Part shown: positions 2,161-47,138 of the stretch, in pieces
Position numbering within the stretch: position 1 is the stretch's first letter
Layout: each line of letters starts with the position of its first letter
Source: Lachnospiraceae bacterium
GTDB lineage: Bacteria; Bacillota; Clostridia; Lachnospirales; Lachnospiraceae
Direction: 5' to 3'
Assembly (NCBI GenBank): GCA_047602645.1
Contig: JASGGU010000005.1
Span: forward strand, 1,533 to 65,532
DNA: 64,000 bases
Notes under the pieces: generated by a model
Seen by the model: the letters and a program-made list of their open reading frames with translations, nothing else
Databases searched by the model: none
Told to the model about the DNA's origin: nothing
Made by a program: the position numbers and the translations under genes

Positions 2161-2171
2161 ATCCAGTCCCC

Positions 2172-3209
2172 CTACTTATTCTCAGCGAGGATGATTGCAT
2201 ATTCAATTGCATTTACTAAACTTGATTCATTTGCCTTCCCAGTTCCCGCATACTCAAAGGCTGTTCCATGATCTACAGAAGTACGTATGATGGGAAGTCC
2301 TAACGTAATATTTACTCCCTCAACCGCATTCCATTTATTCTCTTCCGCATTGTATTCAAAGCCTAAAACTTTAAGCGGAATATGGCCCTGATCATGATAC
2401 ATTGCCACCACAATATCATATAGTCCTCCTCTTGCCTTCGAAAAAACCGTATCCGGGGCAATCGGCCCTTCCACGCAGATGCCCTCCTGCCTTGCCTGTA
2501 AAACCGCAGGCATAATTTCTTCAATTTCCTCCATTCCAAACAAACCATTTTCACCGCAATGAGGATTCAGACCGGCCACCGCAACTTTAGGATTCCGAAT
2601 GCCCAGCATTTTGCAGGCATCGTTTGCAATCCTTATAACATCAGATATTCTTTGCTTCTTCACCTTATCGCAGGCTTCCCGCAAGGAAACATGCGTCGAT
2701 ACATGCACTACACGAAGCTTGTCCTGCGCAAGCATCATTGTATATTTATCCGTCCCTGTTAATTCCGCATAAATTTCTGTGTGCCCCGAATAGTGATGTC
2801 CAGCTATATTAATCGCTTCCTTATTCAGTGCGTTTGTTACTGTTGCCTCAACTTCATTTTTAAGAGCCAGCTCAATTACAGTTTTTACACATTGAAATGC
2901 CGTTTCTCCTCCAAGTTTAGATACTTTCCCCAAAATCAACCTGTTCATGTCTACCATATGTAAATCATAGACATCAATGATGCCCGGTTTAAAAAACGAT
3001 TCCTTCACACTTTTAACCGGATGGATCTTAATTTGATCCTCACGCTTTAATATTTTTACTGCATTAGACATTACCTCTGCATCTCCAATGATCAGCGGCC
3101 GGCATTTGTCATATATTTCACTGCTGCTCAAGGCCTTTACCGTTATTTCCGGTCCGATGCTGGTGGGATCCCCCATTGTAATACCTAAAATAGGTCTTTT
3201 TTTTCCCAT
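2172..3209 (-). CDS. PdxA-family NAD-dependent 4-phospho-hydroxyacid dehydrogenase (PdxA2-like)
   Basis: The 345-aa ORF carries the motifs HYSGHTEIYA, VHVSTHVSL, GLNPHCGENGLFG, AMYHDQGHIPLK and TSVDHGTAF, which are typical of PdxA. Confidence 0.88.
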   Translation of the reverse strand: MGKKRPILGITMGDPTSIGPEITVKALSSSEIYDKCRPLIIGDAEVMSNAVKILKREDQIKIHPVKSVKESFFKPGIIDVYDLHMVDMNRLILGKVSKLGGETAFQCVKTVIELALKNEVEATVTNALNKEAINIAGHHYSGHTEIYAELTGTDKYTMMLAQDKLRVVHVSTHVSLREACDKVKKQRISDVIRIANDACKMLGIRNPKVAVAGLNPHCGENGLFGMEEIEEIMPAVLQARQEGICVEGPIAPDTVFSKARGGLYDIVVAMYHDQGHIPLKVLGFEYNAEENKWNAVEGVNITLGLPIIRTSVDHGTAFEYAGTGKANESSLVNAIEYAIILAENK

Positions 3210-3221
3210 TTCTTCCCCTTC

Positions 3222-4373
3222 CTAAAACAATACCTTTTCATAAATACATCTAATATCAGAGATTGACAGTTCTTTCCTATTATTATTTAATAATCTCTTT
3301 TGCTGACTGCCTGCCTGTACCAGAAATTCAAGGTCTTCTCCGCTGATACCATATTTGTCCAGACTAGTCGGAATCTCTGTTACCTTAACAACATCTTTAA
3401 TTTCATTAATCACATGCTGCGCTTTTAATTCATTGGATTCCCGAATCAATTCCGGATTAATACAATTACAGATATCTACCAGTTGTTTTTGACATGCATA
3501 TTTATTCACTTCCATAACATGGGCAAATAAGATCGCATTAGAAACACCATGAGGAATATGATACTTGCCCCCCAGCGGGTAAGCCAATGCATGCACCGCG
3601 GTTGTCCCACTTCCGGAAATAGCAGTTCCTCCATAAAACGCTCCGAGCATCATATTGTTTTTAGCTTCCATATTTTCAGGATCTTGATACGCCTCTCTGA
3701 TATTGTTAAATATTAATTTGGCCGAAGCAAGTGCATATGTATCAGAAAGAGGGGTTGCCTTTAGGGAAGTATAGCATTCTACGGCATGGGCCAACGCATC
3801 AACCCCCGAGGACGCCACAATGTGCTTGGGTAAGCCTCGAATCATACTCCCGTCTAATATTACGTAGTCCGGTATCATCTCAGGATTTACAATCCCTTGT
3901 TTCGTGTTTTCTTCCGGGATACCAACAATAGAATTACATGTTGCTTCTGAGCCGGTGCCGCATGTTGTCGGTATCATGACTGATTTAATTCTCTTTTTTC
4001 CCTTCATAGAATCTGTCATCAGATCTTTCACCGTATAGGCGGCATCCTTTAATAAAGAATACAGTTTTGCGGCGTCCATTACACTTCCACCGCCCAATGC
4101 AATAATCAAATCACACTGATATTCCCTGACCTCCTCCACCATTTTCTCCATATCCTGATAGCCGGGCTCTGCAACTAATTCATCATATATTTGAAAATCC
4201 GCATGAACATGCTTCAATTCTTCCAGGATTCTATCAACCATTCCGGTCAGCCTAATGGTTTTATCCGTAAATAATAAAACTTTTTTTGCTTCTTCTTTTT
4301 TAATAACATCCTGAATTTTTTTGATACTGCCATCACCGCCAAAAACTTCTGATGGAGTTTTTAATTGATACAT
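3222..4373 (-). CDS. Iron-containing (group III) alcohol dehydrogenase
   Basis: The 383-aa ORF has GGGSVMDAAK, the DALAHAVE/HALAYPLGG histidine motifs, and a GGAGG RBS about 11 nt upstream. Confidence 0.85.
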   Translation of the reverse strand: MYQLKTPSEVFGGDGSIKKIQDVIKKEEAKKVLLFTDKTIRLTGMVDRILEELKHVHADFQIYDELVAEPGYQDMEKMVEEVREYQCDLIIALGGGSVMDAAKLYSLLKDAAYTVKDLMTDSMKGKKRIKSVMIPTTCGTGSEATCNSIVGIPEENTKQGIVNPEMIPDYVILDGSMIRGLPKHIVASSGVDALAHAVECYTSLKATPLSDTYALASAKLIFNNIREAYQDPENMEAKNNMMLGAFYGGTAISGSGTTAVHALAYPLGGKYHIPHGVSNAILFAHVMEVNKYACQKQLVDICNCINPELIRESNELKAQHVINEIKDVVKVTEIPTSLDKYGISGEDLEFLVQAGSQQKRLLNNNRKELSISDIRCIYEKVLF

Positions 4374-4393
4374 GTAATATCTGCCTCCTAATG

Positions 4394-4561
4394 TTTCATT
4401 TTGAAATTATCTGTTGTAATTCTTCTTTATTTTACCGAGATGTATTTTCATTTTCAATGAATTAATATCATTTAATTGTTTTATTTTGAAACATTTTGTT
4501 TATTTTTTTATTATCTTGATGTATAATATGATTATGTTCTAATTAATATTTCATTTTGAAA
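4394..4561. promoter_or_regulatory. Divergent control region with repeated TTTCATTTTGAAA palindromes
   Basis: The identical 13-mer TTTCATTTTGAAA (TTTCA-N3-TGAAA) occurs at 4394-4406 and 4549-4561. Degenerate copies lie at 4446-4457 (TTTCATTTTCAA) and 4480-4491 (TTTATTTTGAAA). A TATAAT hexamer sits at 4522-4527 on the plus strand. Confidence 0.5.
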
Positions 4562-4574
4562 GGCGTATACTATT

Positions 4575-6371
4575 ATGAGAAAAATAAAAATACTTGCAAT
4601 TGCGCCATATGAAGGAATGGCCGAAATTATCACTACTCTGTCCGCAGCGAGAGAAGATATTGATATAACAGTCCGAACAGGAAATTTACACGCCGGATTA
4701 AGAATTGCACACGAACTGTCCTACAAAGACTACGATGTAATCATTTCGCGCGGAGGAACCGCCGAACTTTTACAGCGTGAATTAGAGATACCGGTAATCA
4801 ATATCCCTTTATCTGTGTATGACATGCTTCGTTCCATCAAAATGGCGGAAAGCTATGCCGGGAAATTCGCGATTGCCGGATTCCAAAGTATCACCGGCTG
4901 TGCGAGAATACTTTGTGATTTACTTAATTTAAATATTAAAATTTTTACATTTGAATCTTCCGAGCAGGTCGAGCCCATCCTTTGTTCATTAAAAGAGCAG
5001 GAATATAATTTAGTTGTATGTGATATGATTGGTTCTATCACCGCGCACAGTCTGGGGCTAAACGCTATTTTAGTTCCGTCAGGCACAGAAAGTATATCCG
5101 ATTCCTTAGATGAGGCAGTAAAATTGATCCATACTTCCCGGCATATTATAAAACAAAATGACATTTTTCAAAAAGCTCTCACTTATGACAATGAAAGTGT
5201 TGTCATTTATGACCAGGACGGACATTTATGGTATTCGACCCTCACGAAAAACGAACTATATAATCCTATCTTGAATATGGCGCAAACTTTTCTTCCTGCA
5301 TTCACAAAAACCGACGGGCAGGTGTTCGAACGGCAATATGACAATTATATTGTCACTATTATCAATCAGCATATTTATTATGAAGACAAAAAATATATAG
5401 TTCTGCGGATGAAAAAGAACGAAACTCTGTTTAAAGATGATAATAACAGTATTTCTATTTACAATAAAATAGAGGATAAGTTTCATGATCTATCCATTTA
5501 TTATAGTAGTACTAACTCCTTTGGAAATATGGAAAACATAATAAACGATTACAGCAAGACTGCGTTCCCCATTTTAATAACAGGTGAAACCGGAGCAGGG
5601 AAAGACCAGGCCGCTTCCTTGATATATGAAAACGGACCGTATCAAAGCTCACCTTTTTATATCATTGATTGCGCCTTTTTAAACGAACGTAAATGGAAAA
5701 AAATTATTGACAGTGAAAAGTCTCCGTTCAATAACATCAAAACAACCATCTATATCAAGAACCTCAATAGACTTACCAATGAGCAGTTTTCCGATTTTCA
5801 GTTATTCATTGACCAAACTGATCTCTTAAAGAGAAACAGGCTGATTTTTTCACTGATCACTAATACAACGGACTTTTCAATTTTCTATAACTATCTGGCC
5901 AATCATTTGTCTTGTTTACTTCTGCCCTTGCCGGCACTCAGGGACAGAGCTGATGATATTCCAAGTATTTCAGCTTTATATATTAATCAGCTGAACGTTT
6001 TAACAGGAAAACAAATCGTCGGTTTTGAACCGGATGCCATTCAATTAGTCAAAGATTATTCATGGCCAAACAATCTGGATCAGCTGCGGCGTATTATTAA
6101 AGAGCTGGTTACAATTACAAAAAATTCCTATATCACTGCCGAAAGTGTCCGGCAGCTATTAAAAGCCGAAACAATGAATGAGAAGATTTTACCTGTGGGC
6201 AATTTATTTGCAAACATTGATCCAAATCAAACACTTGAAGAAATAACATACCATATCATTCTTAATGTCATGAAAGAGGAAGGCATGAATAAGGAAAATA
6301 CTTCTCAGAGATTAGGTATCAGCCGCAGTACTTTGTGGCGGGTTTTAAAATCGCATGATCCTGTATCATAG
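4575..6371 (+). CDS. PrpR-N domain / sigma-54-activator-like transcriptional regulator with degenerate AAA+ core and C-terminal Fis-type HTH
   Basis: The 598-aa ORF has an N-terminal PrpR_N-like region (ISRGGTAELLQRELEIPVINIPLSVYD) and a Walker A motif (GETGAGKD). LPALRDRADDI is retained, and the C-terminus has an HTH (NKENTSQRLGISRSTLWRVLK). I cannot find the GAFTGA loop or a Walker B DE pair in their expected positions. Confidence 0.8.
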   Translation: MRKIKILAIAPYEGMAEIITTLSAAREDIDITVRTGNLHAGLRIAHELSYKDYDVIISRGGTAELLQRELEIPVINIPLSVYDMLRSIKMAESYAGKFAIAGFQSITGCARILCDLLNLNIKIFTFESSEQVEPILCSLKEQEYNLVVCDMIGSITAHSLGLNAILVPSGTESISDSLDEAVKLIHTSRHIIKQNDIFQKALTYDNESVVIYDQDGHLWYSTLTKNELYNPILNMAQTFLPAFTKTDGQVFERQYDNYIVTIINQHIYYEDKKYIVLRMKKNETLFKDDNNSISIYNKIEDKFHDLSIYYSSTNSFGNMENIINDYSKTAFPILITGETGAGKDQAASLIYENGPYQSSPFYIIDCAFLNERKWKKIIDSEKSPFNNIKTTIYIKNLNRLTNEQFSDFQLFIDQTDLLKRNRLIFSLITNTTDFSIFYNYLANHLSCLLLPLPALRDRADDIPSISALYINQLNVLTGKQIVGFEPDAIQLVKDYSWPNNLDQLRRIIKELVTITKNSYITAESVRQLLKAETMNEKILPVGNLFANIDPNQTLEEITYHIILNVMKEEGMNKENTSQRLGISRSTLWRVLKSHDPVS

Positions 6372-38899: not shown

Positions 38900-39670
38900 T
38901 TACACCCTCCATAGAATTATTTTCCCAATGGAGGTATGATCAAACAAAAGCAGCACAGACAGGAATAGAATAACTCCCGCTGCCACAACATACTCTTTCA
39001 TGGCAAAAACAACCGGATGGATCGCATGCCGCTTTACATCCCGCTCCAACCCTCTTGTAGTGCCGGAGGCCGCCAATTCATCCGTCACTTTCAGGCAGCG
39101 CATCAAAAGCGGAATTAATAGGTACTCCATTGTCATCAAAGGATGAAAAACCCTTTTCCATACCGTATCCCCAATCCCGCGAATGCCCATGGCGTTTCGT
39201 ATCATTCGATATTCAATCCGCAATGTCGGAAGATAACGGAACATGACGACCAAGGGAATTGTGACCGACTGCGGCAGCTTCATACGCTGCAAGGACACCA
39301 TAAGCTCATCCATTCCCGTAGTTTTTAATACCCATCGCCCCATCATAATAATCGGAATCATCTTTCTTACCGTAACGCCGAAAACACTCATCATCACACT
39401 CAAGCCCGGAACGGACACATAGCGGAAAAGAACGTTCAGGTAGGCTACCGCAATATACACAATCAGCATTTTCACCGCCCACTTTAGTTCACTTCCCGCA
39501 CTGATGAATGCCGCAAACGCAACCATTAAGGATATTCCTGCAACATCACCCATGAGGAAATAGCTGACAAATCCGATTAAAATAAGTAAAAGCAGTTTGC
39601 ATCGAGGATCTAATAATGCAGTTCCCGAATATTGTTTTTTCATAATTATTTGTAATATTGTATGTTCCAT
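38900..39670 (-). CDS. ECF T component (module 2)
   Basis: A 256-aa protein starting at MEHTILQ (GGAGG RBS 6 nt upstream). It has the CbiQ-like region ...RIEYRMIRNAMGIRG.... The longer ORF-track start overlaps the S gene. Confidence 0.82.
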   Translation of the reverse strand: MEHTILQIIMKKQYSGTALLDPRCKLLLLILIGFVSYFLMGDVAGISLMVAFAAFISAGSELKWAVKMLIVYIAVAYLNVLFRYVSVPGLSVMMSVFGVTVRKMIPIIMMGRWVLKTTGMDELMVSLQRMKLPQSVTIPLVVMFRYLPTLRIEYRMIRNAMGIRGIGDTVWKRVFHPLMTMEYLLIPLLMRCLKVTDELAASGTTRGLERDVKRHAIHPVVFAMKEYVVAAGVILFLSVLLLFDHTSIGKIILWRV

Positions 39671-39738
39671 AGCAAGCCTCCGAAATGCAAAAGGAGCCGC
39701 CAAGCAGCAGCCCCTAAGCCTTTTTATGCCGACCACAA

Positions 39739-40341
39739 CTATTTCACAGTTACTAAACCTGCTTTTATAAAATGCTTTTTTAACATGTTCTGTCCCAGCC
39801 ATCCGCCAAGTAATCCTCCGATAAGACCGGCTGCGACTATAACGATCAGCATCGGGGCAGAAGTAAAGCCGGTTATCGTGTCTATGTATTCCTGCGGGAT
39901 GCTGTTACGTTCCATCGCGGCAACAAAAGCCGCCTGCAGAAATTTGATAGGTCCAATCGCACCAAAGGTAAATATGCCGCTAAAAACAGAATAGGCAGCC
40001 ATCATCGACCTCGTTGTAACCTCTTTTCCACCTAGAATCAGGATGTCGCAGAGAATGCCACCTGCTACCAACGAAATCGGAATAAACCAAAATGCTCCAA
40101 CAACCAAGAACAGTACCGCCTGTATGATTCCGCAAATAGTTAAAACACCTTTTTTCGGCACTTTTGCAAGCAGCAGCATCATAACAATACCATTTGGAAT
40201 TGCTACAACCGGTGGATAAAACACGTTCGTTATCGGCCCTGCCACACTCATTGCGGTGCTGATAATCATACAAATCACCCACATAAGAGCAGTAAGAATA
40301 CCTACCAGAATAAAATCTTTTGCATTGAGTTTCTTATTCAT
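39739..40341 (-). CDS. Putative ECF S component, MptD/Trep_Strep type (module 2)
   Basis: The 200-aa polytopic membrane protein has the C-terminal tail LKKHFIKAGLV and an AAGGAG RBS. Confidence 0.7.
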   Translation of the reverse strand: MNKKLNAKDFILVGILTALMWVICMIISTAMSVAGPITNVFYPPVVAIPNGIVMMLLLAKVPKKGVLTICGIIQAVLFLVVGAFWFIPISLVAGGILCDILILGGKEVTTRSMMAAYSVFSGIFTFGAIGPIKFLQAAFVAAMERNSIPQEYIDTITGFTSAPMLIVIVAAGLIGGLLGGWLGQNMLKKHFIKAGLVTVK

Positions 40342-40463: not shown

Positions 40464-41435
40464 TCAGTTTACTTTACCTTCTCTTTTATACTTTTTGGGA
40501 ATTACACCATATTTGTTCCGAAATGCAGAAGCGAAGTTGCTTGACTTTGTATATCCCACAGACAAGGCAATATGATTGATCGGCAGGTCTGTTGCAACAA
40601 GCAATTCAGCAGCCTTTTCCAATCTCTGATCAATAATATAACTATGAATCGGCATCCCAAACAACGCCGAAAACCCTTTTGAAAGCTTTGATACGCTCAT
40701 ATGTGCTTTTTTTGCCAACTGCTCACAGGTTGGGGCATAGGCAAGCTGTCCGTCAATCATCCGTTTGATTTCCCACAGGCTATCCCTGTCCGTTTTTGAA
40801 ACAGAGATCTTGTCAGAACTCAAAATACCCAGCTCCAGAACCTCACTTAGATAAATGGAAACGAGTTCCAGAAGCTTACTATCCAGATAAAGATGCGAAA
40901 GCCCTCCGCGATAAAGAGAAAAATCTTTAAGCTCCGCTAATATCCGCTCCATATTCGCAGTGATTTTTACTTTAGAAACAGTTTTTAACAGCTTATTCTC
41001 ATAAGCAATTATTTCCTGTTCCTCAAAATAGTCTTCTAAAATAGAAGAAAAATAGCGCATCGGTATTTTTATATTTTTGAAATGAAAATCACAGTGCTTT
41101 GCATAGCAGGCATACTCCGTGCCGCCATGGCCTTTGTAAATACAGGATTCACCCTTTTGTATTTGGACGTCTTCACGGTGGTTCGTGATTCCCCATGACA
41201 TGCCTTCATTCATGCAAAAAATAATTTGAATATATTCCTCACGATTGACGCCCCATACATTCATATCTTCTTTATATAGAACTTTCCAATCGGATAATAT
41301 CACGCCTCGCTTTGTAACTGCCTGTGAAATGCTTCCGTTTCCTAAATCAGAGGGGATATCTAATGATATTGTTTGAGGCGAATTTGCAACGAGGTCATGG
41401 TACAAATTATTTAAATATTGGTTTGGATTTCCCAT
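40464..41435 (-). CDS. AraC-family transcriptional regulator (second copy)
   Basis: A 323-aa protein from the ATG at 41435 (GGAGGTG RBS 4 nt upstream). It has a C-terminal double HTH (CEQLAKKAHMSVSKLSKGFSALFGMPIHSYIIDQRLEKAAELL...GYTKSSNFASAFRNKYGVIPKKY). Confidence 0.88.
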   Translation of the reverse strand: MGNPNQYLNNLYHDLVANSPQTISLDIPSDLGNGSISQAVTKRGVILSDWKVLYKEDMNVWGVNREEYIQIIFCMNEGMSWGITNHREDVQIQKGESCIYKGHGGTEYACYAKHCDFHFKNIKIPMRYFSSILEDYFEEQEIIAYENKLLKTVSKVKITANMERILAELKDFSLYRGGLSHLYLDSKLLELVSIYLSEVLELGILSSDKISVSKTDRDSLWEIKRMIDGQLAYAPTCEQLAKKAHMSVSKLSKGFSALFGMPIHSYIIDQRLEKAAELLVATDLPINHIALSVGYTKSSNFASAFRNKYGVIPKKYKREGKVN

Positions 41436-41458
41436 TGCCCACCTCCAATTTATCAAAC

Positions 41459-41878
41459 CTATCTCAGTTCTTTCCTAAGCCTGCTCACAATACGTTCCAC
41501 CTGATCAATCGCTTCAGCCACCTGTTCCTTTGCATCTCCGATTTTGGACTGCACGAACATATCCGCAATGAAACCATCAAAAAAGAAATCCGCAAACGTC
41601 AGAAAATCTCCGATCTGTATGTTCGGCAAATATTCATTTACATCATCCAGTTCCCGCTGGAAGCTCCTCAAATCCTGCCTGGCAGCCTCCATACACTCTG
41701 ATGCGTTATTCAGCTTTGAGTGCTTGATCAAATCTGTAATCAGGCCCCCGCCAAGGATATCCACAATTCCCCAGTTTCCGGCACTTTTCAAATAATCCTG
41801 TGCCTCCCGCAGGCTATTTAACGCTCTTTCACCCGCACTGATTGCCTCTCGTATTTCCTTATTTACATCGTATGACAT
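41459..41878 (-). CDS. Hypothetical helical protein (139 aa)
   Basis: The ORF is clean with an AAGGTGGA RBS. The predicted helices flank NWGIVDILGGGLITDLIKHSK and FADFFFDGFIADMFV. I cannot name a family. It ends 23 nt before the AraC start. Confidence 0.6.
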   Translation of the reverse strand: MSYDVNKEIREAISAGERALNSLREAQDYLKSAGNWGIVDILGGGLITDLIKHSKLNNASECMEAARQDLRSFQRELDDVNEYLPNIQIGDFLTFADFFFDGFIADMFVQSKIGDAKEQVAEAIDQVERIVSRLRKELR

Positions 41879-41910
41879 ATCATTTCCACCTTATTTTCGT
41901 AGTTATGGGA

Positions 41911-41934
41911 TCAAAACTTATTTGCAAAAATAAG
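41911..41934 (-). terminator. Weak AT-rich hairpin after the GyrI-like gene
   Basis: Stem CTTATTT (41917-41923) / AAATAAG (41928-41934) with loop GCAA. TTTTGA follows on the minus strand. Confidence 0.3.
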
Positions 41935-42009
41935 CATTCATCTCTGTTTTAGTATGTGTATAATATATCATCAAAAATTCACCGAAACAAGTATCGGGCT
42001 TAAAAATTG

Positions 42010-42669
42010 TTACAACAATGTTTCTGCAAGCCGGACAGGATGTCTGATCACAGTCTTCCAGTTCTCCGGTGCCGTTCTTCTGACATCGGACAGGTAAATC
42101 TCATGATGCAGCCGATTTTCAGAAAGGTCATTCTCATATCCCTTCTCCCGCAAATACTGATCCATCAGTGCAACTGTCGCCGGCTCATCGTCAAACGGGC
42201 CTGTATGCATACACTGTACACAAGTCCCCTCGGCAACAGTCAGGAACTCTACCTTCGAAAAGTCCTGCTTTTTCTTTTCTGCGGCCTCGGCTGCGGCCCA
42301 TTCAAAATCTGCTTTTGTCACAAATTCGGGCAAACGGATAACGGATATCCAATGAAAATCTGCTTTTCGATCATAATCCACTCCTTCAAGCATATTTCCA
42401 CCTTCCTCTTCCTGCCACCAGAAACCTTCCAGAGGGGGCACGACATAATCAAAATATCCCTCAATCTGATGATTCCCTTTTTTGCTCATCTTAATAGTAA
42501 AAGCAATTCCATAGAGCAAACCGATGGCTGCCTTGTACTCTCCATCCTCTTCATTTGGATTGCCGGTTCCTCTCACCGCAATAAAATTCATCTCGGGAAC
42601 ATCCACAATCTCCGGCTTGTTCTTTGGCATATAGAATTCTTTATACTCTTTTTTGTAATCAAATGGCAT
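42010..42669 (-). CDS. GyrI-like small-molecule-binding domain protein
   Basis: The 219-aa ORF reads MPFDYKKEYKEFYMPKNKPEIVDVPEMNFIAVRGTGNPN...YFDYVVPPLEGFWWQ...HHEIYLSDVRR, which matches GyrI-like proteins as I remember them. The antisense 226-aa ORF is low complexity. Confidence 0.8.
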   Translation of the reverse strand: MPFDYKKEYKEFYMPKNKPEIVDVPEMNFIAVRGTGNPNEEDGEYKAAIGLLYGIAFTIKMSKKGNHQIEGYFDYVVPPLEGFWWQEEEGGNMLEGVDYDRKADFHWISVIRLPEFVTKADFEWAAAEAAEKKKQDFSKVEFLTVAEGTCVQCMHTGPFDDEPATVALMDQYLREKGYENDLSENRLHHEIYLSDVRRTAPENWKTVIRHPVRLAETLL

Positions 42670-42699
42670 ACTTCTATCCCTCCGTAAATGAATTGCCGT

Positions 42700-43239
42700 C
42701 TATCCAAGCAATTTCTTTTTATGAGCTTTCAGTTTTTTGATCGCCCAGTCATAATGGCTTGAGGTAGTACTTACGAAATAAGATCCCAATGTCGTACCCT
42801 TCGTCCATACAAATACCCCTTTTGAGAAAAGCTCTTCATTTGAGTACTCTTCCATCAATTTCATGAGTTCGCGGTGCGAGGCATCCAATTTATCCGAGGC
42901 ATCCTGCAAGGATGTATTCTGATGCTTATTCCAAAACATTACATTCATATCACCATAGGTTTTCCATGAATATTCTTCCGGAAGGAATGGCTGATTCCTG
43001 CCTCTCCTGTTTGACGCTATCCAATTGATGAGAAGCTGATGCCACTCATATAGATGGATCAGTACATCTCTCAGATTCTTATCCCGTTTCCAGTGGGCTT
43101 CTTTCTTCTTCTCATCAGAAGAAAAATCAAACTCCCTGGACAGTTCCTTCTCTGACATTCCTTCTATCAGCGTCCTAAGCTTTTCATAATTTTCTGTTGC
43201 CGCCGCTATTAAATCCGCCTTCGTCTGTGGTCGTGGCAT
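42700..43239 (-). CDS. ClbS/DfsB-family (DUF1706) four-helix-bundle protein
   Basis: The 179-aa ORF reads MPRPQTKADLIAAATENYEKL...RDVLIHLYEWHQLLINW...SHYDWAIKKL, typical of ClbS/DfsB. A GAGGAGG RBS is present. Confidence 0.82.
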   Translation of the reverse strand: MPRPQTKADLIAAATENYEKLRTLIEGMSEKELSREFDFSSDEKKKEAHWKRDKNLRDVLIHLYEWHQLLINWIASNRRGRNQPFLPEEYSWKTYGDMNVMFWNKHQNTSLQDASDKLDASHRELMKLMEEYSNEELFSKGVFVWTKGTTLGSYFVSTTSSHYDWAIKKLKAHKKKLLG

Positions 43240-44156
43240 CTCACTTCATCCTCCTCATATTTTTTCACCAAATCCTTTGCGATATTCAGAAGTTCATATC
43301 TGACAGACACAGGTTCCAGTATCTCGGCTTGACTGCCAAAGGTCATGAGCCAGCTGATCAGGTTCTCCTTATCCGTAAAATCCACAGCAAACAAAAGCTT
43401 CCCATCAGCCTGCTCCTCAAAGCAATGCGGTCCGAATTCTTCTACCAGCCGCCATTTTACATCCTGGGAAAACAAAGCCTTCACCTGCATATTCTGAGGA
43501 AATACCTGATCGGTGGATAACTCAGGAGGCGGGACATCTCTTTTATCAAAAATTTCACCGATCGCCCTCAGCTGATCCATCCGGTTCAATTTGAACAAAC
43601 GAAACGCTTCTTTTTCCAGACAAAATCCCCACACATACCAGCTCGACCATTTAAATACCAGATAGTACGGCTCCACCTTGCGCTCACTTTCACTGTTCGG
43701 GGAGTAATACCAAAAAGATATCAAATGTCTGTCCTCAATTGCAGTCTGAATTACCTCAATTTTCGGTGACAGAGAATCCTTGTACCAAGAGGAAAGATCA
43801 ATCAGGATCGAATCTCTGCCACTGACAAATTCTGAGGAGCCGGACTGCAGCCGTTCCATCAGCTGACTATAATACCTGCTGCCGCAAACGCTGTCCAGGC
43901 TGCGCAGCCCCGCAAGAATCACCTGCATGTCCTTTGAAGTAAGCAGTGTCCTGTCAATCTTATAGTCGTCCATGATGCCGATACCGCCGCCCGCACCCTG
44001 AACGGTACGGATGGGAATTCCGGCCTTGCACAAAGCCTCAATATCCCTATTTATTGTCCGTCTGGAAACCTCAAATTTCTCTGCCAATTCAGGAGCTGTT
44101 ATTTGCTCCTGCTGCAATAATACCGAAAGTATTCCGATCAGTCTGTCTATCTTCAT
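43209..44156 (-). CDS. YafY-type HTH-WYL domain transcriptional regulator
   Basis: From the ATG at 44156 (GGAG RBS): MKIDRLIGILSVLLQQEQITAPELAEKFEVSRRTINRDIEALCKAGIPI.... A WYL-like central region (FWYYSPNSESERKVEPYYLVFKWSSWYVWGF) follows. The 3' end overlaps the ClbS-like gene by 31 nt. Confidence 0.85.
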   Translation of the reverse strand: MKIDRLIGILSVLLQQEQITAPELAEKFEVSRRTINRDIEALCKAGIPIRTVQGAGGGIGIMDDYKIDRTLLTSKDMQVILAGLRSLDSVCGSRYYSQLMERLQSGSSEFVSGRDSILIDLSSWYKDSLSPKIEVIQTAIEDRHLISFWYYSPNSESERKVEPYYLVFKWSSWYVWGFCLEKEAFRLFKLNRMDQLRAIGEIFDKRDVPPPELSTDQVFPQNMQVKALFSQDVKWRLVEEFGPHCFEEQADGKLLFAVDFTDKENLISWLMTFGSQAEILEPVSVRYELLNIAKDLVKKYEEDEVRCHDHRRRRI

Positions 44157-44268
44157 AAGAACTCCATACCTATACTCTATCAGAGGAAACATGTCATCTG
44201 TGTGTCATGTTTATTTTAACACAGTATATTTTATTATGAAATACTCAGAACAATTTTCTATATAATAA

Positions 44269-44306
44269 GAACTGCCCGACAGATGCAATGATCTATCGGA
44301 CAGTTC
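44269..44306 (-). terminator. Terminator hairpin after ECF module 3
   Basis: An imperfect 16-bp inverted repeat, GAACTGCCCGACAGAT / ATCTATCGGACAGTTC, with a 6-nt loop. It starts 6 nt past the ATPase stop. TTATTATATAG follows on the minus strand. Confidence 0.6.
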
Positions 44307-44311
44307 CCTCA

Positions 44312-45763
44312 TCAAACAAAAAACTGCTTCAGCTTCCCAACCCCTTCTTGATCCAGCTGATAGGTATCTCGAACTTCTCCCTTGTCAATTTGTATCACAT
44401 GGGTACAGGATTTCATAATCAGTTCCAAATCATGCGTTACTACAAAGGCTGTCTTTTTCCCAAGAAAGGATAAAAGCATATTTGCTGTTTCTTCCATGTG
44501 GTCGTAATCAAGTCCGCTGGTTGGTTCATCAAAAATCAAAATCTCTTTATCTGCCAATACAGCCGCCGCAATGGCCACTCTTTGTTTCTGCCCACCCGAC
44601 AAGCTCATGGGATGCCTTTCTTTGTATTTTAACAAATCAAATTGCTGCAATACTGTTTCGGCCTTCTCTTCTTCTATATTCTTTAATTTCAATGTGACAT
44701 CACCTATTACTGTTTCACTAAATAGCTGATGATTTACATCCTGCATCACCATATAGCTGCTATCCGTTATTTTCTTCTTTTTCTCTCCATTAATTGTCAC
44801 AATTCCTTTAAAGTGTTTATTTAATCCGCAAAGACATTTTGAGAACGTGCTTTTACCTGCACCATTATGCCCAATGACAGCAATAATAGCATTCTCTGGG
44901 ATTTCCAGTTTTTCAATGTTCAGCGCATATTCCTTTTCATCCTTGTAATGATATCGAAAATTCTTCAATTCTATCTTTCGATCAGTATCTAATTGTGTAG
45001 CAGAAACGGAATAATCAATAGACTCTATATCCATTATTCTCAATCCCATTGTTCTCAGTTGTGCATTGCTGTATTGTTTAAATTGCTTCATAGAAATATC
45101 AAAGTCAATTTTTCCATCATTCAGATGTATGACACGGTCGCAGATATCTTTCAACCAGTAAAGTCTATGTTCTGCAATGATCACTGTCTTTCCTTGATTC
45201 TTCCATCTTTTCATAATCCTGGCCAAATCACGAATTGCATCTACATCCAGATTAGAGGTGGGTTCATCCAATACAATAATTTCCGGGCTGGTAGCGCAAG
45301 CCGATGCACAGGCAATCTTCTGCTTTTCTCCGCCCGAAAGCAGAAAAATACTTCTTCCCATCAAATCTTCTATTTGAAACTGTTCTACCGTATCAAAATA
45401 TCGTGCCAGCGTCTCCTCTCTGTCCAGTCCGTCATTTTCACATCCAAATACAATTTCACCTGAGGTATCCACACAGAAAAACTGACTTCTGGGATTTTGA
45501 AACACACTGCCGACTTTCTTTGATACTTTATTGAGCTCTGTTTTTCTTACATTCATTCCGGCAACCGTAATGGTTCCGCCAATACTTCCTTCGTAATAAT
45601 GAGGAATCAGTCCATTAATCAGCCGGGTTATGGTTGTTTTTCCGCATCCGGATTTTCCGCAAAGCAATACAATTTCACCCTGCTTTATGTGAAGGTTAAT
45701 ATCATCCAAGGTTCCCCCATCCAGATTCTTGTATTTAAAATTTAAATTTTGTATCGTAATCAT
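44312..45763 (-). CDS. ECF transporter fused double ATPase (module 3)
   Basis: The 483-aa ORF has two ABC cassettes (GKSGCGKTT ... LSGGEKQK ; GHNGAGKST ... LSGGQKQR). Confidence 0.9.
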   Translation of the reverse strand: MITIQNLNFKYKNLDGGTLDDINLHIKQGEIVLLCGKSGCGKTTITRLINGLIPHYYEGSIGGTITVAGMNVRKTELNKVSKKVGSVFQNPRSQFFCVDTSGEIVFGCENDGLDREETLARYFDTVEQFQIEDLMGRSIFLLSGGEKQKIACASACATSPEIIVLDEPTSNLDVDAIRDLARIMKRWKNQGKTVIIAEHRLYWLKDICDRVIHLNDGKIDFDISMKQFKQYSNAQLRTMGLRIMDIESIDYSVSATQLDTDRKIELKNFRYHYKDEKEYALNIEKLEIPENAIIAVIGHNGAGKSTFSKCLCGLNKHFKGIVTINGEKKKKITDSSYMVMQDVNHQLFSETVIGDVTLKLKNIEEEKAETVLQQFDLLKYKERHPMSLSGGQKQRVAIAAAVLADKEILIFDEPTSGLDYDHMEETANMLLSFLGKKTAFVVTHDLELIMKSCTHVIQIDKGEVRDTYQLDQEGVGKLKQFFV

Positions 45764-45776
45764 ATTGCCGCTCTCC

Positions 45777-46517
45777 TTAGATTATTTTTATATAGAATAA
45801 TATAGACAATACAATTATCAAGGTATAGAGTGCCATCATCATATAATCAATCGCCTCAAATTTAACCTGATTCACGCATACCCTGTCTATATCTCCGCCT
45901 AAACCTCTTGTCATGGCCGATTGGGATAATTCATCACCGATCTTAACCACACAAATAATCAAAGGAACAATCCTGTATTCAATAAACTTTCCAATATGTC
46001 TGATATCAAAAACAATACCTCTCATTTTCATGGCATCGCTAATGCTTTGAAATTCACAAGCAATTGTCGGAAACATGCGAAACATGACACAGAACGGAAC
46101 AACAATTTTATCTGACACACGCCATTTTTTCAAGCCTGCCGAGAATTCACTTACTGTTGTTGTCGAGATTATATAAGCTCCTGCAATTACCATCGGCATA
46201 AACTTGACAAATATAATTGTCATTGCAACCAGAAATAACTGCAATCCCCCCTTTACTCCCGGAAAAACATATTCTGTCAGCACAACCGCGATCAGATATA
46301 ACCCTCCATAAACAACCACCAATCGGCCTTTACCGGCAAGCATCATCAAGAAAAACATTGCAAAGCATACGATATGCTGAAAATAAGGAATTCCATTTCC
46401 AAGGCCGCCCAAGACAAACAAAGAGATCATGATAAGAAGCATAATCTTTGTTCGGATATCCAATACATAAGGCTTCCTTTCAAACGATTTTATTAGCTGT
46501 TCTTTTGAAACTTCCAT
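45777..46517 (-). CDS. ECF T component (module 3)
   Basis: The 246-aa polytopic protein has the CbiQ-like region ...ACEFQSISDAMKMRG.... It directly abuts the S gene. Confidence 0.82.
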   Translation of the reverse strand: MEVSKEQLIKSFERKPYVLDIRTKIMLLIMISLFVLGGLGNGIPYFQHIVCFAMFFLMMLAGKGRLVVVYGGLYLIAVVLTEYVFPGVKGGLQLFLVAMTIIFVKFMPMVIAGAYIISTTTVSEFSAGLKKWRVSDKIVVPFCVMFRMFPTIACEFQSISDAMKMRGIVFDIRHIGKFIEYRIVPLIICVVKIGDELSQSAMTRGLGGDIDRVCVNQVKFEAIDYMMMALYTLIIVLSILFYIKII

Positions 46518-47138
46518 TCAAACCAGACCCGCTTTTTCAAAGTGTTTTCTGCTGATTGCTTTTGCTATGTATGCACCAACAACCGCCGAGATGATAATTC
46601 CTATCGTCATAACCGGCAGCATCCAAGGCGGCAGAAAGCTGGATAATGCGTCTGCATATTCCTGCCCATATTCCTGTCTGGAAGCAAAATAGCCAATGGG
46701 GTCAATGAATATTGGGAGATAATTTCCGAGTAACCATAATGAAAACACTGCATAGCTGGTGACAATTGCTTTTACGCTCTTATAGTTTCCTGCTTTTAAT
46801 ATCAGGTCCGCCAAAACAGCAAAAATAATTGCAAAAATAAACGGAAAAATTCCCATTCCGCAAAGTCCGGTAATGCCGCCTGTAATGATTCCTGAAATAG
46901 ATAACATTCCAAACTTATTGATCTTGGTATAATAAAGTATCATTGGAATCGCTCCCAAAACCGGCGCAATAAATGCATAGCATACCATCAGTATTGGCAC
47001 CAGACCCATAAAAGCACAAACCATTACAATGATAAAATAAATAGCCGTATAGATACCAATATTGATTAAATCCTTTCCGCTCCATTTCTTTGTATCATAC
47101 TGTATTCCTTCGTTGTCGTATTTCGAGTTATTACTCAT
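46518..47138 (-). CDS. Putative ECF S component, MptD/Trep_Strep type (module 3)
   Basis: The 206-aa polytopic protein has the C-terminal tail SRKHFEKAGLV and a GAGGAGG RBS. Confidence 0.7.
   Translation of the reverse strand: MSNNSKYDNEGIQYDTKKWSGKDLINIGIYTAIYFIIVMVCAFMGLVPILMVCYAFIAPVLGAIPMILYYTKINKFGMLSISGIITGGITGLCGMGIFPFIFAIIFAVLADLILKAGNYKSVKAIVTSYAVFSLWLLGNYLPIFIDPIGYFASRQEYGQEYADALSSFLPPWMLPVMTIGIIISAVVGAYIAKAISRKHFEKAGLV

Follow-up and report, generated by a model that had tools for sequence, protein, structure and literature searches.

A WYL-regulator-led operon encoding a predicted cyclopropyl hydrolase and a ClbS-fold DUF1706 protein in a Lachnospiraceae genome: a candidate genotoxin-defence cassette

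Examination of a 64,000-nucleotide (nt) stretch of a Lachnospiraceae bacterium genome (GenBank assembly GCA_047602645.1, contig JASGGU010000005.1, positions 1,533 to 65,532; hereafter the window, whose own numbering is used throughout) revealed three tightly packed co-directional open reading frames (ORFs) on the minus strand, at 43209-44156, 42700-43239 and 42010-42669. They code for a WYL-domain transcriptional regulator, a DUF1706 protein and a GyrI-like protein, and are interpreted here as a candidate cassette for defence against genotoxins. A preliminary description, made from the sequence alone, had seen in them an inducible cassette of two cyclopropane hydrolases; the coordinates and gene order that it gave agree exactly with the ORF listing of the window, and HMM searches upheld its family assignments (PF08020, E = 1.8e-57; PF06445, 2e-22; WYL, 9e-21). 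The features of the locus are the following:

43209..44156, minus strand: HTH-WYL-WCX (YafY-family) regulator of 315 amino acids (aa), gene 1 of the predicted operon; Pfam HTH_11, WYL and WCX
42700..43239, minus strand: DUF1706 protein of 179 aa with a modelled ClbS fold, assigned to a 'His-type' clade; PF08020
42010..42669, minus strand: GyrI-like protein of 219 aa, predicted Lin2189-type cyclopropanoid cyclopropyl hydrolase (CCH); PF06445
44213..44240, minus strand: candidate promoter P1 from a promoter scan, sigma-70-like, with -35 TTCATA, a 16-nt spacer and a TG-extended -10 TAAAAT
44188..44212, minus strand: putative operator AAACATGACAcacagaTGaCATGTT / AAACATGACACACAGATGACATGTT, a palindrome AACATGACA-N6-TGTCATGTT with one mismatch
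44174..44182, minus strand: P2, an extended -10-like element TGATAGAGT, whose TAGAGT hexamer starts 11 nt past the TGACAT right half-site of the palindrome
44269..44306, minus strand: strong stem-loop with a U-rich tract (-27.6 kcal/mol, z -6.7; 0 of 200 shuffles as stable)
41911..41934, minus strand: modest AT-rich hairpin followed by UUUU (-8.9 kcal/mol, z -3.1), between the GyrI-like gene and the next ORF
41459..41878, minus strand: conserved hypothetical helical-bundle protein of 139 aa, within the 94%-identical shared block
41448..44232, minus strand: shared module of 2.8 kb (blastn, 94.3% nucleotide identity to the loci L001, L002 and L015)

The genes from 44156 to 42010 are predicted to form a single operon with its own promoter, judging from their spacing, their ribosome-binding signals and the terminator upstream. 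The regulator gene overlaps the DUF1706 gene by 31 nt, 30 nt separate the stop codon of the latter from the start of the GyrI-like gene, and a Shine-Dalgarno-like sequence precedes each of the three. The regulator starts at the ATG at 44156 (MKIDRL...), which is common to its homologues, the longer ORF to 44192 being unused. The hairpin at 44269-44306 is the intrinsic terminator of the preceding ECF-type ABC ATPase gene (44312-45763); it insulates the cassette, which must therefore have a promoter of its own. Of the two flanking hairpins noticed in the preliminary description, this upstream one is well supported by folding, whereas the downstream one is a weak terminator candidate, and a stem directly 3' of the GyrI-like stop codon folded no better than shuffled sequence.

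The GyrI-like protein, which matches PF06445 over residues 18-213, is 52% identical to Lin2189 (PDB 3b49 and 5x5m; E = 7e-61), an enzyme known to hydrolyse yatakemycin and CC-1065 (Yuan et al. 2017; PMC5684135). Lin2189 cannot do without E157 and E185, W85 and Y187 are critical to it, and GyrI-like proteins which do not carry the acid pair, such as SbmC, BmrR and Rob, are inactive (PMC5684135). The Lin2189 numbering was verified at all nine published positions before these were mapped onto the window protein, with the following result:

Lin2189 E157: window E162, catalytic glutamate
Lin2189 E185: window E190, catalytic glutamate
Lin2189 W85: window W84
Lin2189 Y187: window Y192
Lin2189 Y46: window Y45
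Lin2189 Y54: window Y53
Lin2189 F154: window F159
Lin2189 Y58: window F57, changed, still aromatic
Lin2189 W99: window F105, changed and adjoining an indel, still aromatic

All Lin2189 residues shown to be essential by mutagenesis are kept in the window protein, as is most of the aromatic cage (Y45, Y53, W84, F159 and Y192). On sequence grounds the protein can be assigned to the CCH subfamily, a known group of enzymes to which it adds a new member, and it can very likely destroy toxins that alkylate DNA by means of a cyclopropane.

The DUF1706 protein presents a different picture. Its AlphaFold2 model (pLDDT 89) predicts the four-helix-bundle fold of ClbS, the colibactin self-resistance protein: a Foldseek search returned 5cof, ClbS (6anr, 7mtl), IRC4, 4n6c and DfsB with TM scores of 0.77-0.82 at 16-24% identity (21-24% for ClbS and 5cof), and DinB/YfiT-type proteins ranked far below these ClbS-type structures. 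A Y55F mutant of ClbS has no activity and gives no protection (bioRxiv 10.1101/431098). The position of this tyrosine is occupied in the window protein by His62, on which phmmer and MAFFT alignments agree, and the 'SPY' motif of ClbS and 5cof aligns with 'SHY' (H162); in DfsB, a conserved proline kinks the C-terminal helix (PMC4773401). A residue census of 69 full-length clade representatives, drawn from a library of 1.8 billion proteins, revealed the same substitutions in most of the relatives:

Position 62: His in 61/69 and Tyr in 2/69; Tyr55 in ClbS
Position 162: His in 51/69; Pro in ClbS
Position 58: Asp in 64/69; Asn51 in ClbS

The window protein shares W66, W92 and Y163 with ClbS. Strong conservation of the pocket residues D58, H62, W66, N99, H162 and Y163 within the clade speaks for a functional site, and close homologues show no change at H49, H62, H67 or H162. 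ClbS and DfsB have been described as devoid of the metal-binding histidines of DinB (PMC4773401); the Pfam DinB_2 comparison does not discriminate between His-type proteins and ClbS, the window protein giving a weak match (25.3 bits against a cut-off of 24.8) and ClbS matching weakly as well. Judged by these alignments, the DUF1706 protein is a member of a distinct and large Firmicutes clade, called here His-type, with a conserved pocket. Because the defining tyrosine was tested and found absent, it is not to be filed as a ClbS-type hydrolase. The earlier proposal of two cyclopropane hydrolases in one cassette was thus half right: the GyrI-like member has the expected glutamate pair and most of the cage, and the ClbS-like member, with histidines in place of both the catalytic tyrosine and the proline, could not be established as such an enzyme. 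We infer instead that the DUF1706 protein is an enzyme whose substrate is a reactive small molecule and whose chemistry is not that of ClbS; with its conserved Asp-His-His pocket, it probably hydrolyses some other electrophile or transfers a group to or from it. A reading as a bacteriocin precursor of the DfsB/Slf kind was set aside, the protein having no signal peptide and its gene sharing an operon with those of a regulator and a hydrolase. A literature search found no functional assay of any His-type member, and DUF1706 genes of commensal Clostridia, present in >95% of healthy human gut metagenomes, are described there as having an 'uncharacterized' role (bioRxiv 10.64898/2026.03.30.715271). 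Tyr-type ClbS/DfsB genes, about 26% identical to that of the window, were observed in E. coli on 186 plasmid records, most of them conjugative and of IncF type.

The product of the first gene carries the domains HTH_11 (4e-15), WYL (9e-21) and WCX (9e-14), and its matches among PDB sequences include PafBC (1e-14) and PafC (4e-9). WYL regulators with a known ligand, namely PafBC, DriD and SiwR, bind single-stranded DNA (PMC10693628; PMC8635444). SiwR in particular activates adjacent DinB-superfamily genes under genotoxic stress, and has PF18029 glyoxalase-like neighbours in some Actinobacteria (PMC10693628). SOS control of the operon was considered and rejected, since no LexA or Cheo box lies near the promoter, and matches to these boxes across the window occur at chance level.

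Several observations converge on the palindrome at 44188-44212, which lies 51 nt upstream of the regulator ATG and directly after P1, and which occurs only once within the window. It forms an invariant block in an alignment of eight otherwise divergent regions upstream of the closest regulator homologues, and was found as well in WYL-CCH loci, referred to below as type 1. In the upstream regions of more distant regulators, a TGACA-N5-TGNCA core is present in 28 of 43, the background rate being 0.02 per 200 nt, and lies some 50-56 nt before the start codon. A TATAAT-like hexamer precedes the palindrome by 5-6 nt in 23 of 36 homologous regions, 14 of these 23 having a -35 that matches in at least 4 of 6 positions, and a downstream TGnTAnnnT is found at a fixed offset in 21 of the 36. 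By footprint and enrichment, the palindrome is therefore a putative operator of the WYL regulator. The start of P1 transcripts would fall inside it, which fits auto-repression, as expected of a regulator encoded by the first gene of its operon. Use of P2 would instead place the right half-site at about -26, in the geometry of a PafBC- or SiwR-style activator; the arrangement TGACAT(N11)TAGAGT differs by one base from the PafBC motif tGTCgg(N10)tA(N3)T (PMC8635444) and resembles the SiwR palindrome.

Conservation of the gene arrangement was surveyed from three anchors. For the DUF1706 and CCH anchors, the 80 best-matching loci were covered, related genomes among them not being independent. With DUF1706 as the anchor (the best 80 of 591 genome loci, at 65-94% identity), a WYL regulator lies directly upstream of the His-type gene in 42/80 genomes. 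A catalytically intact GyrI-like hydrolase belongs to the cluster in 20/80, mostly in the gene order opposite to that of the window, and every GyrI-like neighbour which is neither truncated nor frameshifted keeps E157, E185, W85 and Y187. A gene coding for a radical SAM protein resembling spore photoproduct lyase (SPL) lies directly downstream of DUF1706 in 23/80, and the window has no copy of it. The arrangements were DUF1706 alone (37/80), WYL-DUF1706 (13/80), WYL-GyrI-DUF1706-radical SAM (11/80), WYL-DUF1706-radical SAM (9/80), WYL-GyrI-DUF1706 (6/80), and, in 1/80 each, WYL-DUF1706-GyrI, WYL-DUF1706-radical SAM-GyrI, DUF1706-radical SAM, and GyrI-DUF1706-radical SAM at a contig edge. Hosts of the trio include Lachnospiraceae, Erysipelotrichales, Peptostreptococcaceae, Parvimonas, Mogibacterium and several Streptococcus species. 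With so many other genomes bringing these families together, their adjacency in the window is not a product of chance, and the conserved linkage on which the preliminary description had made its proposal depend is present.

The radical SAM protein (302 aa) is nearest to the NCBIfam families PA0069 and Rv2578c, at about 140 bits and below their cut-offs, and has a weak match to spore photoproduct lyase; a search of the literature on Rv2578c/PA0069 proteins yielded nothing informative. Its gene is seen for instance at L028:6538-7446 and at 22 other loci, L029, L038, L074, L094, L117 and L119 among them, and in some WYL-GyrI operons it comes after the GyrI-like gene.

The CCH-anchored survey covered 80 metagenome loci at 61-74% identity, of which 62 have at least 1 kb of upstream sequence. 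A WYL gene is directly upstream in 22 of these 62, and most of the regulators are 56-67% identical to that of the window; for the regulators of WYL-DUF1706 pairs, identity to the window regulator is no more than about 30%. No DUF1706 gene was found among the CCH-anchored WYL loci. Several CCH-anchored loci have a VOC/glyoxalase gene between the regulator and CCH genes, with YoaP and TfoX_N genes downstream. Regulator homologues at 59-73% identity head WYL-GyrI and related operons, and sampling around four regulators at 68-70% identity gave the arrangements WYL-DUF3795-GyrI-YoaP-TfoX_N, WYL-VOC...YoaP-TfoX_N and WYL-VOC(PF18029)-radical SAM-TfoX_N. The cyclopropane theme of the preliminary description fits the predicted CCH cargo and is too narrow for the whole, the same regulator clade also heading glyoxalase, radical SAM, DUF3795, YoaP and TfoX_N genes.

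Other arrangements were met in the course of these surveys. Listeria monocytogenes NCTC7974 (NZ_LR134400.1; L183), a genetically tractable host, carries at 2170-4946 a cluster of four genes within 2.5 kb coding for a YafY (WYL) regulator, an effector-binding-domain protein of 127 aa, a ClbS/DfsB protein and a VOC protein, the ClbS/DfsB protein being His-type and 41% identical to that of the window; a literature search on Listeria locus tags brought nothing of use. In Gemella (L006-L009, L020), a DeoR-type regulator (HTH_DeoR and DeoRC), and no WYL gene, precedes the His-type DUF1706 gene, and in Streptococcus oralis and S. mitis the latter stands alone after a 304-aa unknown ORF. Split or truncated GyrI-like or WYL genes occur at L064:7485-8122, L044:5342-5863, L115, L129 and L135, where the frameshifts may reflect pseudogenes or assembly errors.

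The cassette also bears marks of mobility. The 94%-identical relative at L001, L002 and L015 has only window positions 41448-44232 in common with the window, the flanks being wholly different in blastn comparisons; because identity is confined to this block, the three genes and the 139-aa ORF travel as a 2.8-kb module. A second type of module, WYL-GyrI-DUF1706-radical SAM (type 2; 3.5 kb), is found at 92-97% DNA identity across Lachnospiraceae, Erysipelotrichales and a Ruminococcus sp., and an adjoining MobC and relaxase-like ORF (L028:7652-8105) suggests that it is carried on a mobilisable element. Searches for plasmid or phage carriage of the module returned only fragmentary, low-identity matches, on megaplasmid or chromid records. 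The window DUF1706 protein is 65-75% identical to the type-2 versions, as against only 30-37% for the regulator and the CCH. The window cassette looks like a type-1 WYL-CCH operon that gained a His-type DUF1706 gene in the slot held elsewhere by VOC or DUF3795 genes, as far as can be judged from these comparisons.

On balance, with a slight lean of probability in its favour, we propose that the locus is a modular and mobile WYL-controlled defence cassette against genotoxins and electrophiles, a Firmicutes counterpart of the mycobacterial SiwR-dinS system. In this proposal, the first gene would encode a homodimer-type HTH-WYL-WCX regulator which binds the palindrome at 44188-44212, overlapping the promoter, and so controls the operon of which its gene is part. 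Its WYL domain, on the model of PafBC, DriD and SiwR, would sense something produced under genotoxic stress, single-stranded DNA being the likeliest candidate, and the operon would be switched on either by relief of auto-repression at P1 or by activation from the '-26' site before P2. Two cytoplasmic proteins would then be made: (i) a Lin2189-type hydrolase which, by means of E162/E190 and the aromatic cage, would open the cyclopropane of spirocyclopropyl-cyclohexadienone toxins of the yatakemycin and CC-1065 class, and (ii) a ClbS-fold DUF1706 protein, whose Asp58/His62/His162 pocket would act on another reactive small molecule. The cassette would belong to a wider family of WYL-led Firmicutes operons drawing on CCH, His-type DUF1706, SPL-like radical SAM, VOC/glyoxalase and a few other genes. 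The identities of the genes, the catalytic residues of the hydrolase, the tyrosine-to-histidine change, the conservation of the operator block, the recurrent linkage and the mobility of the module are observed; the inducing signal, the direction of regulation and the substrates named above are our deductions from them. Since sister operons hold repair-like radical SAM and VOC/bleomycin-resistance-like genes, a genotoxin theme fits the family better than general drug binding does, and for the same reason the cargo cannot be called cyclopropane-specific. Any relevance to colibactin or to bacteria nearby that carry pks is a matter of speculation.

A number of points weigh against the proposal. 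BrxR and CapW, which are WYL repressors of phage-defence operons, answer to as yet undefined signals, and we know of no natural producer of yatakemycin- or CC-1065-like compounds in the gut. Among the DUF1706 clade members surveyed, 37/80 have no WYL gene, nor do most CCH relatives. The DUF1706 protein lacks the one residue that ClbS is known to require and could be a binding protein instead, and the two conserved -10-like elements that flank the operator are compatible with repression as well as with activation. Finally, residues R186, K189 and R192 of the regulator align with the R-x-x-R-x-x-R of PafBC, a comparison that is weakly informative; in SiwR, R204 and R207 are needed for activation (PMC10693628).

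A bolder version of the same idea would make the family a damage-sensing mobile 'anti-genotoxin island' of gut and oral Firmicutes, in which the WYL regulator would switch on a variable set of complementary defences: the CCH against cyclopropane alkylators, an Asp-His(-His) ClbS-fold enzyme and an adduct-repairing radical SAM protein. We hold this to be doubtful. In it, the ClbS-fold enzyme would have a new chemistry or serve against a new toxin class, one that might take in colibactin-like compounds; if true, so far unrecognised duocarmycin- or colibactin-like genotoxins would be common weapons in these communities.

Other explanations have to be considered. According to the first, both cargo proteins are cyclopropane hydrolases, the ClbS-like one directed at colibactin and the CCH at yatakemycin and CC-1065, so that a gut non-producer living near pks+ Enterobacteriaceae would be doubly protected. 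The CCH half of this explanation is well supported, many close CCH relatives lie on human-gut metagenome contigs, and CCH and His-type DUF1706 genes share an operon in 20/80 genomes. The warhead of colibactin is, however, chemically unlike the substrates of CCH enzymes. Regarding the other half, the DUF1706 protein does have the ClbS fold in its model (TM about 0.8), and a ClbS-like protein of B. longum with as little as 26.8% identity is protective against colibactin (Silpe et al.; PMC8907063). The ClbS-like proteins tested in that work came from Enterobacterales, Snodgrassella, Frischella and B. longum (PMC8907063), and all those which could be checked and have shown protection are Tyr-type; this holds even for the most distant of them, that of B. 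longum, whose synthetic gene encodes ...YQVGW.... In the window protein, histidines stand at both the Tyr55 and the proline positions. In addition, the slot between the regulator and CCH genes holds VOC/glyoxalase or DUF3795 genes in relatives, which suggests interchangeable cargo rather than a fixed pair. Double cyclopropane hydrolysis is accordingly judged unlikely.

Rather unlikely as well is a stress operon that answers to xenobiotics or antibiotics in general and is unconnected with DNA damage, in which the WYL protein would sense a small molecule and the cargo would consist of binders or promiscuous hydrolases. Precedents for binding are easily found: GyrI-like domains are classic small-molecule binders, VOC/bleomycin-resistance-like proteins such as those of the sister operons often work by sequestration, DfsB-type DUF1706 proteins have been described as non-enzymatic (PMC4773401), and CtaZ, a GyrI-like protein of anaerobes, confers closthioamide resistance by binding (PMC9545259). 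The glutamate pair that is missing from SbmC, BmrR and Rob is nevertheless kept here and in all non-truncated neighbours, the SPL-like radical SAM gene of 23/80 loci points to DNA lesions, and the WYL regulators whose ligand is known bind single-stranded DNA.

A WYL-regulated anti-phage or prophage-control cassette resembling those of BrxR or CapW, whose cargo would limit phages or prophage induction, is very improbable and was rejected: PADLOC WYL models for CRISPR-associated signalling match the regulator (5.6e-51), the regulator (1.7e-27) and the DUF1706 protein (2.4e-13) match PHROG families of unknown function, and ClbS-like proteins suppress colibactin-triggered prophage induction (PMC8907063), but the PADLOC match is confined to the WYL domain, no PADLOC model matches either cargo protein, a Pfam scan of the window showed no adjacent defence genes, and the cargo families are of detoxification and repair types.

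The 139-aa ORF downstream of the trio was rejected as a core member of the cassette, given the unrelated gene contexts of its homologues and the absence of any family match. Searches of Pfam, NCBIfam, PADLOC, PHROGs and PDB sequences returned nothing informative, nor did Foldseek find an informative fold match for its AlphaFold2 model (pLDDT 78). It is co-transferred with the three genes, and is probably a separate unit or a passenger. The family is widespread among Lachnospiraceae, where it is without annotation: an 88%-identical homologue is followed by a glyoxalase/bleomycin-resistance-like gene (L175:5001-5870), and another lies directly after lrgAB (L178).

In the window, an AraC-family regulator gene (40464-41456) comes after the 139-aa ORF, and the module is flanked by two paralogous ECF-type transporter gene sets, at 38900-40341 and 44312-47138. 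Each of these has a Trep_Strep S-component adjoining a CbiQ T-component, the upstream set (44312-47138) having in addition a fused double ABC ATPase (44312-45763). The segment 26000-33000 has a G+C content of 0.47-0.52, against about 0.40 elsewhere, and contains no rRNA or Rfam family; an Rfam scan of the whole window found no RNA family.

The locus places His-type DUF1706 proteins, a very common uncharacterised gut family, in a WYL-controlled context together with a validated class of genotoxin hydrolases, which makes their function testable; the partnership with a repair-like radical SAM protein frames this function in the same way. It would also extend the paradigm linking WYL regulators to DNA damage (PafBC, DriD and SiwR) to Firmicutes, with a conserved candidate operator. 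In gut and oral communities, resistance to natural products that alkylate DNA may be mobile, with a possible bearing on colibactin ecology, on prophage induction and on the fate of duocarmycin-type drug payloads that meet the microbiota.

A literature search found no paper joining 'WYL' and 'GyrI-like' and none describing the cassette, in agreement with the preliminary description, which knew of no account of the trio as a unit. Its parts can be compared with several known systems. Like Lin2189, YtkR7 and C10R6, the GyrI-like protein of the window is a stand-alone protein, of 219 aa, and with Lin2189 it shares the acid pair, W85 and Y187. It differs from Lin2189 in the two cage positions where phenylalanine replaces Tyr58 and Trp99, and from YtkR7 and C10R6 in its setting, since these are self-resistance genes inside producer clusters and the window gene is part of a WYL-led operon in a presumed non-producer. 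The DUF1706 protein has the predicted four-helix fold and similar size of ClbS and of the orphan ClbS-like proteins (PMC8907063; 6anr, 7mtl); it is likewise cytoplasmic, without a signal peptide, and, as with the orphan genes, is encoded outside any pks island. Unlike ClbS, it has His62 for Tyr55, Asp58 for Asn51 and His162 for the helix-kinking proline, and belongs to a separate Firmicutes clade and to a regulated operon with a CCH gene.

The regulator has the domain architecture of BrxR, CapW and PafBC, and its putative operator, like theirs, overlaps core promoter elements. With PafBC it has in common a GTC/GAC half-site which a TAnnnT hexamer follows at about 11-12 nt; the window site is palindromic, implying a homodimer, in contrast to the heterodimeric PafBC site, and the cargo is of the detoxification and repair kind rather than phage defence or a global DNA-damage regulon.

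The nearest described system is SiwR-dinS of Mycobacterium smegmatis, which consists of a WYL activator and the DinB-superfamily operon msmeg_1357-56 (PMC10693628). In both systems an HTH-WYL-WCX regulator adjoins DinB-clan genes, recurrently so in the present case (42/80 genomes), and a palindromic site is present, that of SiwR lying between -10 and -35; SiwR is linked to genotoxic stress, and PF18029 glyoxalase-like genes are alternative neighbours of actinobacterial SiwR and of the WYL clade of the window alike. In contrast to the divergently oriented SiwR gene, the regulator gene of the window and of all its relatives is the first of a co-directional operon. The DinB-clan member is here a DUF1706 protein with the predicted ClbS fold, not a DinB_2/DUF664 protein, the cargo includes a predicted CCH, to which relatives add an SPL-like radical SAM protein, and the hosts are Firmicutes, among which the modules are horizontally mobile.

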